From: Marinilabiliales bacterium
GTDB taxonomy: Bacteria > Bacteroidota > Bacteroidia > Bacteroidales > DTU049
DNA length: 55,559 nt
Direction: 5' to 3'
NCBI GenBank assembly: GCA_002869435.1
Contig: PKSX01000159.1
Span: 1-55,559 of the forward strand
In this document: piece after piece, positions 47,583 to 55,559 of the stretch
How positions within the stretch are numbered: the stretch's first letter is position 1
Layout: each line of letters opens with the position of its first letter
The notes under the pieces: generated by a model
What the model was told of the DNA's origin: nothing
What the model saw: only the letters and a program-made list of their open reading frames with translations
The model's database searches: none
Position numbers and translations under genes: made by a program

Positions 47583-47590
47583 TATTTTTG
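47583..47590 (+). promoter_or_regulatory. Bacteroidota -7 box TATTTTTG, candidate promoter of the liu-like operon
   Basis: Exact motif, 49 nt upstream of the ATG at 47640. Confidence 0.35.
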
Positions 47591-47639: not shown

Positions 47640-48389
47640 ATGTATAAATTAGAATCCAAAATTGATGTCCATTCGGAAAGTTTTATTGAAAATAAACAAG
47701 AATTTCTGAAGCTACTGAACAGATACAAAGAGGAATATCAGAAAGTAATGAATGCTGTTCCTGCAAAGACAATTGAGAAGCATAAAAGCAGGGGCAAGCT
47801 TCTTGCCCGTGAGAGGATTAATCTTCTTATTGATCCAAACACTCCTTTTCTCGAATTGTCACCGCTTGCTGCATACGATATGTATGATAATGGCTTTCCT
47901 TCTGCAGGGATTGTAACTGGTGTTGGCTTGATTCACGGACGCGAAACTGTGATTATAGCAAATGATGCTACTGTAAAAGGTGGTACTTATATGCACCTGA
48001 CCATAAAAAAACATTTAAGAGCACAGGAAATTGCAATGGAGAATGGATTACCATGTGTATATCTGGTTGATTCAGGTGGTGCCTTCTTACCCGAGCAGGA
48101 TACTGTATTTCCGGACAGAGATCATTTTGGACGGTTTTTTTACAACCAGGCAAGATTATCATCAATGGGAATCCCTCAGATTGCAGCTGTAATGGGCTCC
48201 TGCACCGCCGGCGGCGCCTATGTCCCGGCCATGAGTGATGAGACCATCATTGTAAAAAAACAGGGAACTATTTTCCTCGGTGGACCACCACTTGTAAAAG
48301 CTGCTACAGGAGAAATTGTAAGTTCTGAAGAATTGGGTGGAGCCGAAGTGCATACTTCTATTTCGGGTGTAGCTTACCATTTTGCTTAA
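47640..48389 (+). CDS. Methylcrotonoyl-CoA carboxylase beta-type carboxyltransferase, N-terminal part (ends at an in-frame TAA; possible pseudogene or split gene)
   Basis: 249 aa, co-linear with the MCCC2/LiuB N domain ('[15 protein letters not shown]', '[11 protein letters not shown]', 'VDSGGAFLP', '[17 protein letters not shown]'). It stops within '[13 protein letters not shown]'. Confidence 0.85.
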
Positions 48390-48413: not shown

Positions 48414-49247
48414 TTGAGAAATATTTTTGAGTCGATGAAGTTCAAGAAAAAGCAGGCTTTTGACCTTGCTCCAATTGAAGAACCGGCATATGACCCTGAA
48501 GAGTTGTACGGTATTGCACCTGTTGATTTTAAAAATCTTGTTGACCCAAAAGAAATTATTGCACGTATTGTTGACGGAAGTAAATTTCATGAGTTCAAAG
48601 AGAAATACGGAACTACTATTGTTACCGGCTTTGCACGAATCATGGGCTTCCCGGTGGGTATCATAGCAAATAACGGGGTTATTTTCTCTGAATCCGCATT
48701 GAAAGCAACACATTTCATTGAACTATGTACTTCTAAGAAGATTCCTCTATTATTCCTGCAAAATATAACAGGGTTTATTGTGGGGAAAGATTTTGAAAGA
48801 GGCGGAATCGCTAAAGACGGTGCAAAATTGGTGCATGCTGTTGCTAATGCGAATGTTCCCAAATTCACAGTAATATTCGGAGGTTCATTCGGGGCCGGTA
48901 ATTATGGAATGGCCGGAAGAGCATATGATCCACGCTTGTTGTTCATGTGGCCCAACGCAAAAATCTCCGTTATGGGTGGCCGACAGGCTGCAATAGTGCT
49001 GACAACAGTAAAAGAAGATCAATACAGAGCCAAAGGCGTTGAACCACCAGCCGATGAAATAGAAGCGCTCAGAAAAAGCATCATGGATAAATATGAATAT
49101 GAAGGATCTGCTTATTACAGTACCGCAAGATTGTGGGATGATGGCATTATAGATCCGGTGGATACAAGAAAAGTATTGGCCCTTGGAATTGCAATGTCTC
49201 AAAACAAAGAAATCCCTGATCAGAAGTACGGTGTATTCAGAATGTAA
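48414..49247 (+). CDS. Methylcrotonoyl-CoA carboxylase beta-type carboxyltransferase, C-terminal part (same frame as 47640-48389)
   Basis: Co-linear with the MCCC2 C domain ('VDGSKFHEFKEKYGTTIVTGFARIMGFPVGIIANNGVIFSESALKATHFIELC', 'LFLQNITGFIVG', 'ARLWDDGIIDP', 'YGVFRM' end). Homology already reads through from 48390. Possible restarts are TTG 48414 and ATG 48435. Confidence 0.8.
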   Translation: MRNIFESMKFKKKQAFDLAPIEEPAYDPEELYGIAPVDFKNLVDPKEIIARIVDGSKFHEFKEKYGTTIVTGFARIMGFPVGIIANNGVIFSESALKATHFIELCTSKKIPLLFLQNITGFIVGKDFERGGIAKDGAKLVHAVANANVPKFTVIFGGSFGAGNYGMAGRAYDPRLLFMWPNAKISVMGGRQAAIVLTTVKEDQYRAKGVEPPADEIEALRKSIMDKYEYEGSAYYSTARLWDDGIIDPVDTRKVLALGIAMSQNKEIPDQKYGVFRM

Positions 49248-49272: not shown

Positions 49273-50064
49273 ATGAAAACATTTGAAACAATAGAATTTG
49301 AATTAACCAATGGTATTGCTACCATTTGGCTGAACCGTCCTGAAGTACATAATGCTTTGAATGAGCTGATGATCTCAGAGATTATTGCCTGTTACGAGGA
49401 AATTAATAATATGGCCGATGTACGTGTTGTTATTCTACGTGGACGAGGAAAATCATTTTGTGCGGGAGCAGACCTGAATTACATGAAAGGCATTGCTGAA
49501 TTTGGTTTTGAAGAGAACTATCAGGACAGCCTCCGCTTAGCTAAATGTTTTAACGCTATTTATACATGTAAAAAGCCAACCATTGCCATTGTACATGGTG
49601 CAGCTATTGGTGGTGCAAACGGATTACTTGCATCTTGCGACTTCGTTTATTGTGCTGACGACACAAAATTTGCATTCAGTGAAGTGAAACTTGGTATTGC
49701 CCCGGCAACAATATCTCTCTATGTTGTTAAACGTATAGGAGAATATGGTGCCCGCGACCTGATGCTTACAGGAAGAAGATTTACAGGAAAAGACGCCGAA
49801 TGGTATCGTTTAGCCAACAAATCACTTCCGGTGGAAGAATTGGATGAGCATGTGGGCAAGATCATCAAAACACTACTTAGCAGCGGACCAGATGCCATTG
49901 CAGCGTGCAAATCACTTATCTATAATATTTCCAATAAAATGCCTTTTGAAGAAGCCATTGATTATACGGCAAAGCTTATTGCTGAGCTTCGTGCATCGAA
50001 TGAAGGACAGGAAGGAATGGCTTCGTTTCTTGAAAAAAGAAAGCCCAATTGGGTTGTTGAATAA
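49273..50064 (+). CDS. Enoyl-CoA hydratase/isomerase (crotonase) family, probable 3-methylglutaconyl-CoA hydratase by context
   Basis: 263 aa. 'FCAGADL', 'AIVHGAAIGGANGL' and 'FAFSEVKLGI'. It sits between the two carboxylase components. Confidence 0.85.
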   Translation: MKTFETIEFELTNGIATIWLNRPEVHNALNELMISEIIACYEEINNMADVRVVILRGRGKSFCAGADLNYMKGIAEFGFEENYQDSLRLAKCFNAIYTCKKPTIAIVHGAAIGGANGLLASCDFVYCADDTKFAFSEVKLGIAPATISLYVVKRIGEYGARDLMLTGRRFTGKDAEWYRLANKSLPVEELDEHVGKIIKTLLSSGPDAIAACKSLIYNISNKMPFEEAIDYTAKLIAELRASNEGQEGMASFLEKRKPNWVVE

Positions 50065-50112: not shown

Positions 50113-52284
50113 ATGAGTAAACGCAGAATAGAATTCAGTTTGTTATACAGAGACATGTGGCAGTCATCCGGCAAGTATGTACCACGTGTTGATCAATTGG
50201 TACGTATAGCTCCGGTAATCATTGACATGGGTTGTTTTGCCAGAATTGAAAGCAATGGTGGAGCTTTTGAACAGGTGAATCTCTTGTTTGGCGAAAATCC
50301 TAACAATGCAGTAAGGCAATGGGTTAAGCCTTTTAATGAAGCAGGTATTCAAACTCATATGCTTGAACGTGCATTGAATGGAATAAGAATGTTTCCTGTA
50401 CCTGCTGATGTAAGGCGTTTGATGTATAAGGTAAAAAAAGCACAGGGTGTTGATATTGCCAGATCTTTTTGCGGGTTGAACGATCACCGAAATCTTGAAC
50501 TGTCAATAAAGTACGCGAAAGAAGCCGGCATGATTTCTCAGGCCGCTTTAAGTATTACGCATTCAAAATTGCATACGGTCGATTATTTCATGAATGTTGT
50601 TGACAAAGCTGTTGAATATGGAACGGATGAGATCTGTTTAAAAGATATGGCCGGCATTGGAAGGCCACACACTCTTGGCAAACTGGTCTATGCCATGAAA
50701 CAAAAATATCCGCATATAAAAGTGCAGTATCATGGCCACTCAGGACCCGGCTTTTCTGTAGCATCTACACTTGAAGTTGCAAAAGCCGGTGCAGATATTA
50801 TTGATGTTGCCATGGAACCTTTATCGTGGGGTATGGTGCATCCCGATGTAATAACAATTCGAGAAATGCTTGATGATGCAGGATTTGATGTTCCTGAGAT
50901 TAACATGAATGCCTATATGGAAGCGAGGGCACTCACACAGGAGTTCATTGATGATTTTCTGGGGTATTTCATTGATCCGAAAAACAGATACATGTCATCG
51001 CTGATGATTGCCAGCGGACTACCCGGCGGAATGATGGGAAGCCTCATGGCTGACCTTAAAGGCGTACATCAGGGAATCAACATGGCGCTGGAAGCATCAG
51101 GAAACATGCCACTTACTGAAGACGAATTGCTCATCAAACTCTTTGATGAAGTTGCCTACATATGGCCTCTTATGGGCTACCCTCCCCTGGTAACACCATT
51201 TAGCCAATACGTGAAAAACACGGCGCTTGTAAATGTATTGAATCTTGCCCAGGGGAAAGACCGTTTTGAAATGATTGATGATAATACCTGGGATATGCTG
51301 CTTGGTAAAGCTGGAAATCTTCCGGGTAAAATTGATGGAATATTTGAAAAACTGGCCAAAGAACAAAACCGTGAATTCTATACCGGTGTTCCACAGGAAG
51401 CATATCCGGATGTTCTTGATAAATATCGTGCGGAAATGGTTGAGAACGGATGGGAAACTGGTCCTGATGATGAAGAGCTTTTTGAATTTGCCATGCATGA
51501 AACGCAATACAGAGACTATAAGTCAGGCATTGCCAAACAACGTTTCGAAGAAGAAATCAATAAATTAAAATCACCAAAGAATACTACAACAGTGAAAGAA
51601 GTTCAGGTACCCAATCGTAGTGCATACAGCAAGAAAGAAGCTGACCGGGATACAGCAATGATATCTTATCTGCTTTATAGTCTAAATACATCAAGTTTTG
51701 AAGAAAAACCAATGTGTCAGCAAGAACCTGATATTTGGAAATCCATAGGTTTTTGGCGCAATATGAATGAGGTTATCATTAAATATGATGAAAAGGAAAC
51801 TGTCGTACAGATTCTGAACCAAAAGGATAACCAATACTCTTTGAAAATCGAAGAACAAACATATAATTGTGCTTTGATTTACATTGCAAAAGGTGAAGCT
51901 GATGTGAGCATAGGTGATGAAAAGTACTGGGCTAAATTTTCACAGGGTGAAAACGATTTCATGAATGTAACTATAAATGGCAAGGTACTATGCATGAGAC
52001 GTATGGATCTGCTCGAGGATCAAACCTCAGGTGGTTCTGCTACCGAAGGTGCCGGTGGAGGAAATGTAGTTAAATCGCCAATGCCCGGTAAAATTTTCAA
52101 ACTTAATGTAAAAGAGGGTGACAAGGTTACCAAAGGCGATGTTTTGCTGGTGGTTGAAGCAATGAAAATGGAAAATCGCATTCTGGCTACAAAAGATGCT
52201 GTTGTGCAGAAAATCAATATTCAGTTAAATGACATGATTGATGCATCAACCGAACTTATTTTACTTGAAGATCAAAAACAATAA
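50113..52284 (+). CDS. Chimeric biotin protein: 5S-transcarboxylase/OadA/PycB-type oxo-acid carboxyltransferase + MCC-alpha-like BT module + biotinyl (BCCP) domain
   Basis: 723 aa. 'YRDMWQS', 'NGGAFEQ', 'LKDMAG' (Lys177), 'HGHSGPG', 'LPGGMMGSL' and 'GYPPLVTPFSQ' align with 5S/OadA CT motifs. C-terminal 'VKSPMPGKI...VVEAMKMEN' is a biotinyl domain (Lys685). No ATP-grasp motifs are present. Confidence 0.85.
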   Translation: MSKRRIEFSLLYRDMWQSSGKYVPRVDQLVRIAPVIIDMGCFARIESNGGAFEQVNLLFGENPNNAVRQWVKPFNEAGIQTHMLERALNGIRMFPVPADVRRLMYKVKKAQGVDIARSFCGLNDHRNLELSIKYAKEAGMISQAALSITHSKLHTVDYFMNVVDKAVEYGTDEICLKDMAGIGRPHTLGKLVYAMKQKYPHIKVQYHGHSGPGFSVASTLEVAKAGADIIDVAMEPLSWGMVHPDVITIREMLDDAGFDVPEINMNAYMEARALTQEFIDDFLGYFIDPKNRYMSSLMIASGLPGGMMGSLMADLKGVHQGINMALEASGNMPLTEDELLIKLFDEVAYIWPLMGYPPLVTPFSQYVKNTALVNVLNLAQGKDRFEMIDDNTWDMLLGKAGNLPGKIDGIFEKLAKEQNREFYTGVPQEAYPDVLDKYRAEMVENGWETGPDDEELFEFAMHETQYRDYKSGIAKQRFEEEINKLKSPKNTTTVKEVQVPNRSAYSKKEADRDTAMISYLLYSLNTSSFEEKPMCQQEPDIWKSIGFWRNMNEVIIKYDEKETVVQILNQKDNQYSLKIEEQTYNCALIYIAKGEADVSIGDEKYWAKFSQGENDFMNVTINGKVLCMRRMDLLEDQTSGGSATEGAGGGNVVKSPMPGKIFKLNVKEGDKVTKGDVLLVVEAMKMENRILATKDAVVQKINIQLNDMIDASTELILLEDQKQ

Positions 52285-52295
52285 ATATTCTCATC

Positions 52296-53453
52296 ATGGA
52301 TTTTGAATTAACACAAGAACAAAAGTTTATCAGAGAATCCGTTCGTGATTTTGCTGAAAGAGAGATCAGACCAATAGCTCAGGAATTGGATGAAAAACAG
52401 GAATTTTCAATTGAACTCACCAAGAAAATTGGAGAATTGGGTTTATTTGGGATGATTGTATCACAAGAGTATGGAGGACAGGGTCTTGACTACATTTCAT
52501 ATATCATTGCTGTTGAAGAAATTGCACGTGTAGACGGATCACAAGCTGCAACAGTTGCTGCACACAATTCACTTGGAGTGAATCCGCTCTACTATTTCGG
52601 AAATGATGAGCAGAAGAAAAAGTATGTTCCACAATTATGCACAGGTGAGGCCTTATGGGGCTTTGGATTAACAGAACCTGATGCAGGTTCAGACTCAAGA
52701 GCTTCAAAAACAACCGCAGTATTGGCTGATGGAAAATGGAACATCAACGGATCAAAAATATTCATTACAAATGCTTCTGCTTCTATTTCAAAAGGAAGTA
52801 CTGTTCAGGCAGTCTCCGGCGAGAAGGATGGGAAAAAAGAGTTTTCAGCTATTATTGTTGAGCAAAACACACCCGGTTTTACTGCAAAATCAATGCACGA
52901 TAAAATGATGTGGAGAGCATCCAACACAGCCGAATTATACTTCGATGATTGTGTTGTTCCCGAAGAAAACCTGTTGGGTAAGCGTGGAGATGGCTCCAGA
53001 ATCATGCTGAACACACTCGACCATGGCAGATTATCCATTGCAGCTATGGGACTTGGTTGTGCTCAGGGCGCCTTTGAACTGGCCGTAAAATATGCCCAGC
53101 AAAGAATTCAGTTTGGAAAACCCATTTCAAAAAATCAGGTTGTGGCAAATAAACTGGCGGATATGGCCATGAAGATAGAACTGGCGCGCAACTTACTATA
53201 CAAAGCCTGCTGGTTGAAGGATAATGGAAAACCATTTGCCAAAGAAGCTGCAATGTCAAAACTGTATTGTGCAGAAATAGCCAATGAAGTCTCCTTCGAG
53301 GCTGTTCAGATACATGGCGGATACGGGCTGATGAAAGATTACGATGTTGAAAGACACTATCGTGATCAGCGTTTACTTCAGATTGGTGAAGGCACATCTG
53401 AAATTCAAAGGCTTGTTATCGGAAGATATGTCATTGATGAATATCCGGTTTAA
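52296..53453 (+). CDS. Acyl-CoA dehydrogenase (short/branched-chain type)
   Basis: 385 aa. 'GFGLTEPDAGSD', 'QFGKPI' and 'QIGEGTSEIQRLVIGR'. Confidence 0.92.
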   Translation: MDFELTQEQKFIRESVRDFAEREIRPIAQELDEKQEFSIELTKKIGELGLFGMIVSQEYGGQGLDYISYIIAVEEIARVDGSQAATVAAHNSLGVNPLYYFGNDEQKKKYVPQLCTGEALWGFGLTEPDAGSDSRASKTTAVLADGKWNINGSKIFITNASASISKGSTVQAVSGEKDGKKEFSAIIVEQNTPGFTAKSMHDKMMWRASNTAELYFDDCVVPEENLLGKRGDGSRIMLNTLDHGRLSIAAMGLGCAQGAFELAVKYAQQRIQFGKPISKNQVVANKLADMAMKIELARNLLYKACWLKDNGKPFAKEAAMSKLYCAEIANEVSFEAVQIHGGYGLMKDYDVERHYRDQRLLQIGEGTSEIQRLVIGRYVIDEYPV

Positions 53454-53489: not shown

Positions 53490-54182
53490 ATGAGTAAAGT
53501 TTTTGAAAATGCTTTTGAAGCAATTCATGATATCTCCGACGGGGCTTCAATCATGTTTGGTGGATTTGGTTTATGTGGCATACCCGAGAACTGTATCAAT
53601 GCGCTTGTTGAGAAAAACATTCAGAATCTCACATGTATTTCCAACAATGCAGGAATTGATGATTTCGGACTGGGGTTATTGCTAAGAAAACACCAGATGA
53701 AAAAGATGATCGCTTCTTATGTGGGCGAAAACAAAGAGTTTGAACGTCAATTAATAGCCGGTGAACTTGAAGTTGAACTGATACCACAGGGAACACTAGC
53801 AGAAAGATGTCGTGCAGCCTGTATGGGTATACCTGCTTTCTTTGTGCCTGCAGGTTTCGGTACTGAAGTACAAGGAGATAAAGAAACTCGTGAGTTTAAC
53901 GGAAAAATGCATGTACTGGAACATGCGATGGAAGCTGATTATTCAATCATCAAAGCCTGGAAGGGTGATACTAATGGAAATCTGATTTACAGAAATACGG
54001 CCAATAATTTCAATCAGCCTATGGCCGGTGCAGGCAAGATTACGATTGCTGAAGTTGAAGAACTGGTGCCTTTTGGCGAACTTGATCCAAACGACATACA
54101 TACACCTGGCGTATTTGTAAATCGTATTTTCCAGGGAACGAATTATGAGAAACGTATTGAATTCGTTACTGAACAGAGTTAA
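53490..54182 (+). CDS. scoA: 3-oxoacid CoA-transferase subunit A
   Basis: 230 aa, near-colinear with ScoA/AtoD ('GGFGLCGIPE', 'KKMIASYVGENKEFERQ', 'GELEVELIPQGTLAER', 'ITIAEVEELV'). Confidence 0.92.
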   Translation: MSKVFENAFEAIHDISDGASIMFGGFGLCGIPENCINALVEKNIQNLTCISNNAGIDDFGLGLLLRKHQMKKMIASYVGENKEFERQLIAGELEVELIPQGTLAERCRAACMGIPAFFVPAGFGTEVQGDKETREFNGKMHVLEHAMEADYSIIKAWKGDTNGNLIYRNTANNFNQPMAGAGKITIAEVEELVPFGELDPNDIHTPGVFVNRIFQGTNYEKRIEFVTEQS

Positions 54183-54203: not shown

Positions 54204-54860
54204 ATGGCTTTAGATAAAATCGGTATAGCAAAACGTATTGCAAAGGAATTGCAGGACGGTTTTTATGTGAATCTTGGCATTGGTATTCCTACGCTTCTTG
54301 CCAATTATATTCCGGAAGGAATGAATGTGACCTTACAATCAGAAAATGGCATGCTGGGAATTGGTCCATTTCCTGAAAAAGGAAAAGCAGATGCAGACCT
54401 TATTAATGCAGGAAAACAAACAGTAACCATATTACCCGGTGGAGCTTTCTTTGACTCAGCAACCAGTTTTGGGATGATACGTGGCGGTCATATTGACTTG
54501 ACTGTTCTGGGTGCTTTCGAAATATCAGAAAAAGGAGATATTGCGAGTTGGAAAATCCCCGGAAAACTCATTAAAGGGATGGGTGGTGCGATGGACCTAG
54601 TGGCTGCAGCAAAAAATATTATTGTTGCTACTACTCATACAGACAAGGCCGGAAATCCTAAATTACTCAAAGAATGCACCTTGCCATTAACAGGTGTTCA
54701 ATGTGTAAAAATGATTGTAACCGATATGGCAGTTATTAAGGTAACGCCTAATGGATATCAGTTGATAGAGCGCGCACCGGGAGTTTCTGTTGATGAGATT
54801 ATTGCTGCTACAGGAGCAGAACTGATTATTGATGGAGATATTCCGGAGATGAATGTCTAG
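54204..54860 (+). CDS. scoB: 3-oxoacid CoA-transferase subunit B
   Basis: 218 aa. Catalytic-Glu motif 'LQSENGMLG', '[10 protein letters not shown]'. Confidence 0.92.
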
Positions 54861-54870
54861 CTTTCAACTC

Positions 54871-54921
54871 AAACCTGACAGGTTTGCCGCAGTTCCTTGT
54901 ACAAAACCTGTCAGGTTTTTT
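54871..54921 (+). terminator. Strong intrinsic terminator formed by two near-palindromic 15-mers
   Basis: AAACCTGACAGGTTT (54871-54885) is the exact reverse complement of AAACCTGTCAGGTTT (54904-54918). The loop is 18 nt and a T-run follows. Confidence 0.8.
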
Positions 54922-54943
54922 ATTGCATATGGTTTCTGTTTGC

Positions 54944-54958: not shown

Positions 54959-55559
54959 ATGCAAAACCACAAACCACTAAAGATTGTTGAAAGTCCCCGC
55001 GATGGCTGGCAGGGGTTAAACACTTTTATTAATACAGAAACAAAAGCGGAATATATCAACACTTTAATACAAGTTGGTTTTGACATTATTGAAGTTGGAA
55101 GTTTTGTCTCGCCCAAACTAATTCCACAACTCGCGGATACTTCACAGCTCATTTCACTTTTAGATACGTCAAATACTTCTTCCCGGCTCATGGTCTTGGT
55201 TGCTAATGACAAAGGAGTCGATAACGCTCTTGCTCACGATAAAATCTCCTTACTCTCCTACCCTTTTTCCTTTTCTCCAACTTTTCTCAGAAAAAACCTA
55301 AATACAGAGTATAAAGATGGCCTTAAGTTCATTGAGCGAACTCAAAAAAAATGCAAGGATTCAGGTAAAGAACTAGTAGTATATATCACAATGGCTTTTG
55401 GAAACCCTTATGGTGATCGCTGGAGTCTGCAGGACCTTTGTTCATGTGTGGAAGATTTTTTTGGAATTGGAATTGAAAGAATATCATTAACTGACATTAC
55501 TGCTGAAGCTACAACAGGAACTATTGAAAAAGTGTATGGGTGCCTGCACAATAAATACC
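54959..55559 (+). CDS. Hydroxymethylglutaryl-CoA lyase (partial; runs off the window end)
   Basis: My own translation from the ATG at 54959: 'MQNHKPLKIVESPRDGWQGLNTFINTETKAEYINTLIQVGFDIIEVGSFVSPKLIPQLADT...'. This has the HMGL-like 'E.(G/S)PRDG.Q' and 'IEVGSFVSPK' motifs. It is open to the last base and is absent from the ORF track because it has no stop. Confidence 0.85.
   Translation, partial: MQNHKPLKIVESPRDGWQGLNTFINTETKAEYINTLIQVGFDIIEVGSFVSPKLIPQLADTSQLISLLDTSNTSSRLMVLVANDKGVDNALAHDKISLLSYPFSFSPTFLRKNLNTEYKDGLKFIERTQKKCKDSGKELVVYITMAFGNPYGDRWSLQDLCSCVEDFFGIGIERISLTDITAEATTGTIEKVYGCLHNKY

Follow-up and report, generated by a model that had tools for sequence, protein, structure and literature searches.

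How could a 3-methylcrotonyl-CoA carboxylase (MCC) operate if the subunit expected to carry its biotin carboxylase (BC) contained another carboxyltransferase instead? This question is raised by contig PKSX01000159.1 of a Marinilabiliales bacterium (assembly GCA_002869435.1), a stretch of 55,559 nucleotides hereafter called the window, in which a gene for an MCC beta subunit shares an operon with an open reading frame (ORF) for a 723-aa protein (50113-52284, + strand). A first-pass annotation of this DNA had read that protein as a fusion in which the BC of MCC-alpha is replaced by a carboxyltransferase of the type present in oxaloacetate decarboxylase (OadA), transcarboxylase 5S and pyruvate carboxylase (PC). 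The analysis described here supports this reading, through the fold of a BT domain, the position of the gene in the slot of liuD, and neighbourhoods without BC, OadB or OadG. Judging from sequences and predicted structures, the 723-aa protein is probably the alpha-type subunit of an ATP-independent oxaloacetate:3-methylcrotonyl-CoA transcarboxylase built on the MCC scaffold, a proposal that we make with moderate confidence.

Domain organization of the 723-aa protein

ORFs were listed from the window and their domains were called with Pfam and NCBIfam. In the N-terminal part of the 723-aa protein Pfam recognizes HMGL-like (residues 131-234, 44.7 bits, cut-off 29) and PYC_OADA (351-475, 54.5 bits, cut-off 27), while no Pfam match to Biotin_carb or CPSase_L_D2, both present in canonical LiuD, was obtained anywhere in the protein. 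Its nearest NCBIfam models are those of PycB and OadA, yet the scores lie far beneath the curated cut-offs (oadA TIGR01108, 269 versus 756.5; and the PycB models PRK09282, 285 versus 402, PRK14041, 185 versus 734, and PRK14042, 169 versus 1182). An AlphaFold2 (AF2) model of the full-length protein, for which a 60-sequence alignment was used, reaches a mean pLDDT of 76.6 and contains a TIM barrel plus helical domain (1-486), a disordered linker, a helix (512-524), a loop, eight strands (553-630), a second linker and a biotin carboxyl carrier (BCCP) domain (652-720). Foldseek superimposed this model on transcarboxylase 5S with TMt 0.82 and rmsd 3.5, the corresponding values for V. cholerae OadA being 0.86 and 3.1.

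The motifs RDMWQS (13-18), KDMAG (177-181) and HGHSGPG (207-213) are found where the first-pass annotation had placed them. Residues R13, D14, Q17, R86, K177, H207 and H209 align with canonical PycB residues and are invariant in 85/85 sequences of fusions and of the stand-alone homologues described below, R13 to Q17 being covered by 18 of the 19 fusion-clade sequences (the remaining one starts at residue 45). All of them except R13 were also recorded as invariant in the 60-sequence alignment. By comparison with R. etli PC and 5S, we take the Asp, the carbamylated Lys and the His-x-His pair to be metal ligands, and the Arg/Gln/Arg set to bind the oxo acid. Among fusions, identity reaches 74-88% in the carboxyltransferase half, 76-83% in the accompanying MCC-beta and 29-46% in the BT region. 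The carboxyltransferase half is thus as conserved as MCC-beta, which marks it as a functional enzyme domain, and the possibility of a relic or decaying domain was ruled out on the same grounds.

The first-pass annotation had also pointed to a resemblance of residues ~545-640 to the BT domain of the alpha subunits of MCC and propionyl-CoA carboxylase (PCC), and structural and profile comparisons bear this out. In the AF2 model the central helix is followed by a hook, D-I-W-K-S-I-G-F-W-R-N (540-550, nt 51730-51762), and by the eight strands, which form a barrel; a separate model of residues 505-723 has identical topology, with pLDDT 88-94 across the barrel. When this C-terminal model was used as Foldseek query, the best matches were the BT+BCCP regions of PCC-alpha and MCC-alpha (E 1e-11 to 1e-9). 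As 207-238 columns were aligned, the match goes far beyond the 70-residue BCCP. The PT+BCCP region of PC and the beta subunit of Methylobacillus flagellatus PC (MfPC) ranked lower (~5e-7, 136-162 columns). For profile comparison with hhalign, BT regions cut from eight annotated MCC-alpha genes of plasmid records served as reference, and the alignment of fusion BT regions matched them with a probability of 89% (P 2.3e-6, score 42.8, 104 columns), the reversed and 20 column-shuffled controls scoring at most 14.3. The two hooks are paired in this alignment, the invariant D-[IV]-W-x3-G-[FY]-W-R-N of the fusions with [SD]-P-W-x4-G-W-R-[LM]-N of MCC-alpha. This element is important for contacts in the PCC holoenzyme (PMC5059739). 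A combined BT+BCCP profile searched against the Protein Data Bank (PDB) gave alignments that take in the BT of both PCC-alpha and MCC-alpha, with a score that comes mostly from the BCCP, and was not used as evidence. In the predicted models, then, residues ~505-630 are a self-contained BT domain of the MCC/PCC type. It is too divergent for sequence-to-profile detection, only hhalign and Foldseek recognizing it, and annotation pipelines therefore name the protein PycB, OadA or 'biotin/lipoyl-binding protein'.

The C-terminal carrier is recognized by Pfam as Biotin_lipoyl (652-716). Its biotinyl-lysine, K685 in EAMKMEN, is encoded at 52165-52167, exactly as described in the first-pass annotation, and the 60-sequence alignment shows no variation at M684, K685, M686 and E687. 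Longer fusions of 850-951 aa also exist (L004:10001-12850, encoding P0020; P0011, P0017, P0022 and P0026-P0029), some with two or three tandem BCCPs. In the 949-aa P0020 three tandem BCCPs follow the BT, and P0022 and P0027 have two AMKM-type biotinyl motifs each. Such repeats agree with a carrier that has to reach two distant sites.

Operon position and absence of a nearby biotin carboxylase

The flanking genes run in the same direction (Table 1), with intergenic gaps of 25, 48, 11, 36 and 21 nt, so gene order and spacing are as previously reported. The first of them encodes the beta subunit. If Glu is assumed at its single in-frame stop, discussed below, the product of 535 aa matches the structures of human MCCC2 (701 bits) and P. 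aeruginosa MCC-beta (695 bits) end to end, which agrees with the whole-length likeness to MCCC2/LiuB claimed earlier. Scores with other carboxyltransferases are lower (geranyl-CoA carboxylase beta, 483 bits; transcarboxylase 12S, 270; GcdA, 169), and identity to proteobacterial MCC-beta is ~62-64%.

Neighbourhoods were scanned by tblastn in 88 loci with flanks of up to 10 kb, among them ~18 independent fusion loci. The order MCC-beta, hydratase, fusion, acyl-CoA dehydrogenase (ACAD) recurs in the loci that have enough flank, with the 3-oxoacid CoA-transferase genes (ScoAB) and one to three genes resembling 3-hydroxy-3-methylglutaryl-CoA (HMG-CoA) lyase nearby, and in most loci the ACAD gene lies directly 3' of the fusion. 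Exceptions are L002, with insertions between genes, and L015, where MCC-beta is missing within 10 kb; the expected co-occurrence of fusion and MCC-beta genes was observed in most orthologous loci. On plasmids of Azospirillum and Massilia, the genes of canonical liu operons follow the order isovaleryl-CoA dehydrogenase (IVD), MCC-beta, hydratase, MCC-alpha, HMG-CoA lyase. As the gene order matches, the fusion occupies exactly the liuD slot.

With E. coli AccC as the tblastn query, no sequence similar to BC was detected in the window (best E = 2.1), in agreement with the reported lack of an ATP-grasp ORF nearby. The expectation that no MCC-alpha or BC gene would appear just past the window held as well: none was present in the next 6.7 kb, nor in the 88 loci. 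OadB and OadG were likewise absent from the window and from up to 10 kb around every fusion, and among the 88 loci they were seen only in Parabacteroides.

These absences bear on the strongest alternative, which we regard as unlikely: a BC acting in trans (AccC or a PycA-like subunit) would carboxylate the BCCP of the fusion, and the complex would be an ATP-dependent MCC with the OadA-type domain as an accessory (alternative CO2 donor, relief valve or scaffold). BC subunits are near-universal, every fatty-acid-synthesising bacterium having AccC, and BC or BC-BCCP subunits shared by several carboxyltransferases are known in actinobacteria and archaea. In MfPC a BT-like module recruits a BC subunit (PMC5059739). 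However, no candidate was found at the ~18 independent fusion loci or in the window, and what has been replaced is precisely the part of LiuD that holds the BC. The BT of the fusion is modelled as a full barrel formed by one chain, helix included, whereas the composite module of MfPC needs the C-terminal helix of the BC subunit. In addition, the active site of the carboxyltransferase is constrained as strongly as MCC-beta.

Relatives and origin of the fusion

The complete architecture recurs, with at least 64% identity, in at least 120 clusters formed at 90% identity, and the named carriers are all metagenome-assembled genomes (MAGs) of uncultured Bacteroidales, Bacteroidetes, Marinilabiliales or Lentimicrobiaceae. 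In a library of representatives at 50% identity, mostly fragments, full-length relatives fall from ~62-66% directly to ~30%. A scan of GTDB species genomes gave more than 585 relatives; among the best 80 of these, 14 extend over its full length, a further one is a truncated fusion and 65 cover only residues ~3-490, at 68-79% identity. The homologues in L024 and L084, seen in full, are stand-alone carboxyltransferase plus BCCP proteins of 580 and 593 aa (L024:9998-11740, L084:9995-11776), and others occur in Dysgonomonas, Paludibacter, Porphyromonas, Prevotellaceae, Rikenellaceae and other Bacteroidales. This stand-alone type is very common, with examples at loci L024-L088 and L008:8001-9857. 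The BT module was absent from 66/66 stand-alone genes. Homologues from Parabacteroides are 62-64% identical, the one from P. goldsteinii (64%) being located within an oadG-x-oadA-oadB operon.

RDMWQS, NGGAFEQ, MLERALN, KDMAG, HGHSGPG and PGGMMGS do not differ between fusions and stand-alone proteins, and no fusion-specific fixed residue was detected in the carboxyltransferase domain among the 85 sequences. The idea that the fusion acquired a new substrate through active-site changes of its own was rejected, since there are no such changes relative to the stand-alone group. In a neighbour-joining tree all BT-bearing sequences form one clade within the stand-alone radiation, and the fusion therefore has a single origin, in an ordinary OadA-like gene of Bacteroidales. 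Clustering with ordinary OadA in the company of OadB/G had been named in the first-pass annotation as an outcome that would speak against its proposal. The first part did occur, the carboxyltransferase half clustering with Bacteroidales OadA-like proteins, while no OadB/G was present beside the fusion. By its sequence this half is an ordinary Bacteroidales OadA-like domain, not an exotic one. That affiliation strengthens the case for oxaloacetate as donor: a domain derived from the OadA-like family would most simply keep the donor of that family, and the Parabacteroides operon points to oxaloacetate.

Two side observations concern the wider family. Distant relatives of the 'RDMWQS' type, 44-49% identical, include P0129 (588 aa), in which both His ligands are replaced (D/R for H-x-H) and the PGGM loop is gone, and P0130 (510 aa), which is without BCCP. 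In Dysgonomonas sp. PH5-45, genes for a PCC/Mmd-type carboxyltransferase (31% identical to MCC-beta) and a BCCP (L082:17258-19473) lie ~6 kb 3' of a stand-alone OadA-like gene.

Proposed reaction and alternatives

According to the proposed mechanism, the BT hook would anchor the 723-aa protein on the MCC-beta hexamer, as the BT of LiuD/MCCC1 does, and the BCCP, with biotin on K685, would swing between two carboxyltransferase sites. At the N-terminal OadA-type site oxaloacetate would be converted into pyruvate with carboxylation of the biotin; at the MCC-beta site the carboxybiotin would turn 3-methylcrotonyl-CoA, the acceptor to be expected from a carboxyltransferase of the MCC-beta type, into 3-methylglutaconyl-CoA. 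Neither ATP nor bicarbonate would be needed. In catabolism of leucine or isovalerate the ACAD would act upstream, and hydratase, HMG-CoA lyase and ScoAB downstream, giving acetyl-CoA and acetoacetyl-CoA. Oxaloacetate can be remade from phosphoenolpyruvate in Bacteroidales metabolism. Which way the reaction runs would depend on the enzymes encoded alongside.

Operation in the opposite direction, in which 3-methylglutaconyl-CoA and pyruvate would yield 3-methylcrotonyl-CoA and oxaloacetate and feed isovaleryl-CoA into iso-branched fatty acids or leucine, as in the myxobacterial HMG-CoA shunt, seems improbable to us. It would draw on the fact that transcarboxylations run near equilibrium (established for EC 2.1.3.1), on an ACAD that is closest to Bcd-type enzymes, often reductases in anaerobes, and on the dominance of iso-C15 lipids in Bacteroidota. 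On the other hand, the operon contains HMG-CoA lyase-like proteins and ScoAB, and HMG-CoA synthase was absent from the annotated genes of the cluster, although no dedicated search for it was made; this combination favours catabolism. In L002 (L002:1-3025) a phosphotransacylase gene (PTA_PTB) and two genes of the acetate/butyrate-kinase family are situated directly 5' of MCC-beta. They would suit activation of isovalerate or recovery of ATP, and also point to catabolism.

A different oxo-acid pair at the N-terminal site, such as oxalosuccinate/2-oxoglutarate, or acetoacetate, is a little less probable still. The clade is only ~30% identical to the characterised carboxyltransferase domains of 5S, OadA and PC, its motifs deviate (RDMWQS for RDAHQS, PGGMMGS for PGGM(L/I)SN), and PycB-like enzymes acting on 2-oxoglutarate exist. 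Against this, R13, Q17 and R86, which are aligned with the residues binding the carboxylate and carbonyl of pyruvate, are invariant together with the metal ligands, and the closest relatives reside in an oadG-oadA-oadB operon. That the protein is an ordinary OadA or PycB present in a liu operon by chance, its MCC-beta neighbour pairing with a canonical MCC-alpha from elsewhere, as the names given by public pipelines ('pyruvate carboxylase subunit B', 'oxaloacetate decarboxylase') and a carboxyltransferase domain indistinguishable from the stand-alone type might suggest, is very improbable given an MCC/PCC-type BT that is confined to the operon-embedded clade and absent from the 66 stand-alone genes, the synteny with MCC-beta kept across that clade, and the lack of OadB/G or PycA near the fusion.

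The transcarboxylase proposal itself has several observations weighing against it. The donor of the stand-alone homologue is deduced only from the Parabacteroides operon, and OadB/OadG were found within 10 kb of the stand-alone homologue in 0/65 GTDB loci, their presence being limited to Parabacteroides/Tannerellaceae. The column of the catalytic Thr/Ser of PC, 5S and OadA (presumably T882 in R. etli PC) is occupied by Gly309, with Ser310 adjacent, in PGGMMGS, and the same is true of all stand-alone Bacteroidales homologues. A hidden Markov model of the BT region gave no match in PDB sequences with hmmsearch even at E 10, and Pfam BT_MCC_alpha and PCC_BT did not match the fusion at E 10, canonical LiuD being matched at 8.5e-17. 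The ACAD is nearer to structures of the butyryl-CoA dehydrogenase (Bcd)/short-chain acyl-CoA dehydrogenase type (384 bits) than to IVD (~270 bits), the MCC-beta gene of the window has an in-frame TAA, and an MCC-alpha or a trans-acting BC may be encoded elsewhere in these MAGs, beyond the window and the flanks analysed.

Comparison with known systems

The logic proposed here is that of the Propionibacterium transcarboxylase (EC 2.1.3.1; 12S, 5S and 1.3S), in which a hexameric acyl-CoA carboxyltransferase and a carboxyltransferase of the 5S/OadA type share a biotin carrier without BC or ATP. The locus studied here has all three kinds of component in one operon, with no BC in any neighbourhood analysed. 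In the present case, however, the acyl-CoA carboxyltransferase is of the MCC-beta type (~700 bits with MCC-beta versus 270 with 12S), the carrier is not a separate peptide like 1.3S but is fused to the oxo-acid carboxyltransferase via an MCC-type BT, and the carboxyltransferase half is only ~23% identical to 5S. With its MCC-beta-type partner and its fused carrier with a BT anchor, the system is not a member of the 12S/5S/1.3S family. Compared with MCC (LiuB/LiuD; MCCC2/MCCC1), the fusion keeps BT and BCCP and the place after MCC-beta and hydratase, but the ~450-aa ATP-grasp BC of LiuD (Biotin_carb_N, CPSase_L_D2 and Biotin_carb_C in the Azospirillum protein) is replaced by the 486-aa carboxyltransferase of the OadA type. 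The Bacteroidales OadA-like proteins (580-636 aa) share the carboxyltransferase (62-79% identical) and all active-site motifs with the fusion, but carry their BCCP after a short linker, without BT and outside any MCC-beta or liu context, and the Parabacteroides protein comes with OadB and OadG, neither of which was found near the fusion. The 723-aa protein is hence not an MCC-alpha, having no BC, nor a Na+-pump OadA, with no OadB/G and scores below the cut-offs, nor a PycB.

The best full-length PDB match is MfPC beta (5KS8; E 1e-41 by sequence, Foldseek E 6e-36), with the same order of modules: carboxyltransferase, barrel-type module and BCCP. MfPC's BT-like domain is composite, made of a helix from the BC subunit and of two sets of four strands, one per beta subunit, and has no hook (PMC5059739). 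The statement in the first-pass annotation that orthodox OadA/PycB proteins lack the extra module has to be qualified accordingly: it applies to the stand-alone OadA-like genes, which are without BT, but not to the beta subunit of two-subunit PC, which contributes half of such a composite barrel (PMC5059739). In the models of the fusion, by contrast, one chain alone supplies helix, hook and eight strands, the C-terminal model is nearer to the BT of PCC and MCC, and there is no pycA in the vicinity of the fusion.

The nearest published idea that we found concerns Geobacter bemidjiensis, where adjoining gcdA and oadA genes (Gbem_1453/1454) encode a GcdA/MCC-beta-type protein and an OadA with extra biotin domains, without membrane subunits, and a possible cooperation between the two was suggested (PMC2996986). 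In that case the acyl-CoA is glutaconyl-CoA, and the authors do not report a fusion with a BT. The full-text literature searched contained no description of the fusion studied here, most subscription journals being outside its coverage.

Placed among these systems, the complex could represent a second class of biotin-dependent transcarboxylase in nature: an MCC holoenzyme with carboxyltransferases of the OadA type in place of its six BC domains, a suggestion that we make with marginally less confidence than the assignment of the subunit itself. To our knowledge, EC 2.1.3.1, the model for carboxyl shuttling, is the only such enzyme established so far; the second would act on another acyl-CoA and be assembled differently, with a BT anchor and not a 1.3S tether. 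If this is true, the BC module of an acyl-CoA carboxylase would be exchangeable in nature for an oxo-acid carboxyltransferase, and one ATP would be saved per leucine or isovalerate, so that anaerobic Bacteroidales short of energy could afford the MCC route. Fusions that carry two or three BCCPs in tandem could then be adaptations to a long swing between sites. It would also correct the mis-annotation of the at least 120 clusters mentioned above and supply pathway engineering with a carboxylation module that needs no ATP.

The in-frame stop codon in MCC-beta

In the window the MCC-beta gene is split into two ORFs (47640-48389 and 48414-49247) by one in-frame TAA at 48387-48389. A frameshift was ruled out; as both halves are in the same frame with a lone TAA between them, this is a nonsense codon. 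The window was compared with two further contigs, one from JGI (L005) and one from ENA (L006), the three being 99.8% identical. Two G-to-T changes 12 nt apart, causing D246Y (48375) and E250stop, are common to the window and L005, while L006, a contig with 4.8x coverage, has Asp and Glu (GAA) at positions 246 and 250 and carries G394W at a conserved Gly. MCC-beta is intact in all orthologous loci. The stop is thus either a consensus or sequencing error or a lesion that one sub-population acquired very recently, and its absence from L006 and the orthologues indicates that it is no feature of the system. The fusion gene shows zero differences among the three sequences. Elsewhere, single-nucleotide differences between these assemblies cluster in the HMG-CoA lyase gene (window 55132-55549), where 9-16 codons are affected, about half of them non-synonymously.

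Other features of the locus

Table 1. Features of the operon and its borders, with positions in the window.
Feature	Position	Strand	Evidence or remark
Candidate Bacteroidota -7 promoter element, TATTTTTG	47583-47590	+	Read by eye; ~50 nt 5' of first operon ATG
MCC-beta (LiuB/MCCC2-type acyl-CoA carboxyltransferase), 535 codons	47640-49247	+	Pfam Carboxyl_trans on both halves
Crotonase-family hydratase	49273-50064	+	Pfam ECH_1, 1.7e-54
OadA/5S/PC-type carboxyltransferase, residues 1-486 of the 723-aa protein	50113-51570	+	Pfam, NCBIfam, Foldseek
Predicted BT domain, residues 505-630 of the 723-aa protein	51625-52002	+	AF2, Foldseek, hhalign
Biotinyl carrier domain, residues 650-720 of the 723-aa protein	52060-52272	+	Pfam Biotin_lipoyl, 2.5e-16
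Short-chain acyl-CoA dehydrogenase	52296-53453	+	Pfam ACAD domains
3-Oxoacid CoA-transferase subunit A	53490-54182	+	NCBIfam pcaI_scoA_fam, 250 bits, over cut-off
3-Oxoacid CoA-transferase subunit B	54204-54860	+	NCBIfam pcaJ_scoB_fam, 322 bits, over cut-off
Terminator-like hairpin, 15-bp stem, -25.2 kcal/mol, then T-run	54871-54924	+	RNAfold
HMG-CoA lyase-like gene, 5' part, continuing past the window end	54959-55559	+	Translation MQNHKPLKIVESPRDGWQG...

The promoter element was recognized by its likeness to TAnnTTTG, which we take to be the Bacteroidota -7 consensus, and remains an unconfirmed site. A scan of the sequence for sigma-70 consensus promoters and for terminators gave sites no more frequent than in shuffled sequence; the hairpin behind the gene for ScoB was missed by the consensus terminator scan because its loop is longer than 8 nt. 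A terminator followed by HMG-CoA lyase had been described at this point, and both are present (Table 1).

Two of the enzymes take their names from context. For the hydratase, the top NCBIfam match is gamma-carboxygeranoyl-CoA hydratase (254 bits, under cut-off), and its position in the operon suggests a 3-methylglutaconyl-CoA hydratase (LiuC/AtuE-like). The ACAD is tentatively named isovaleryl-CoA dehydrogenase by its context only.

The HMG-CoA lyase-like gene is available in full length in L005 and L006, where its product scores 170 bits with the NCBIfam model of the HMG-CoA lyase subfamily (cut-off 246). Two more HMG-CoA-lyase-like paralogues (336 and 329 aa) follow 3' of it in these contigs (L005:14772-17983, L006:13560-16696), and all three genes are under the NCBIfam subfamily cut-off. 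A comparable extra paralogue is also present in L001, L004, L014, L019 and L021. The remaining genes of the window encode ordinary Bacteroidota housekeeping functions and cargo of the type IX secretion system (T9SS).

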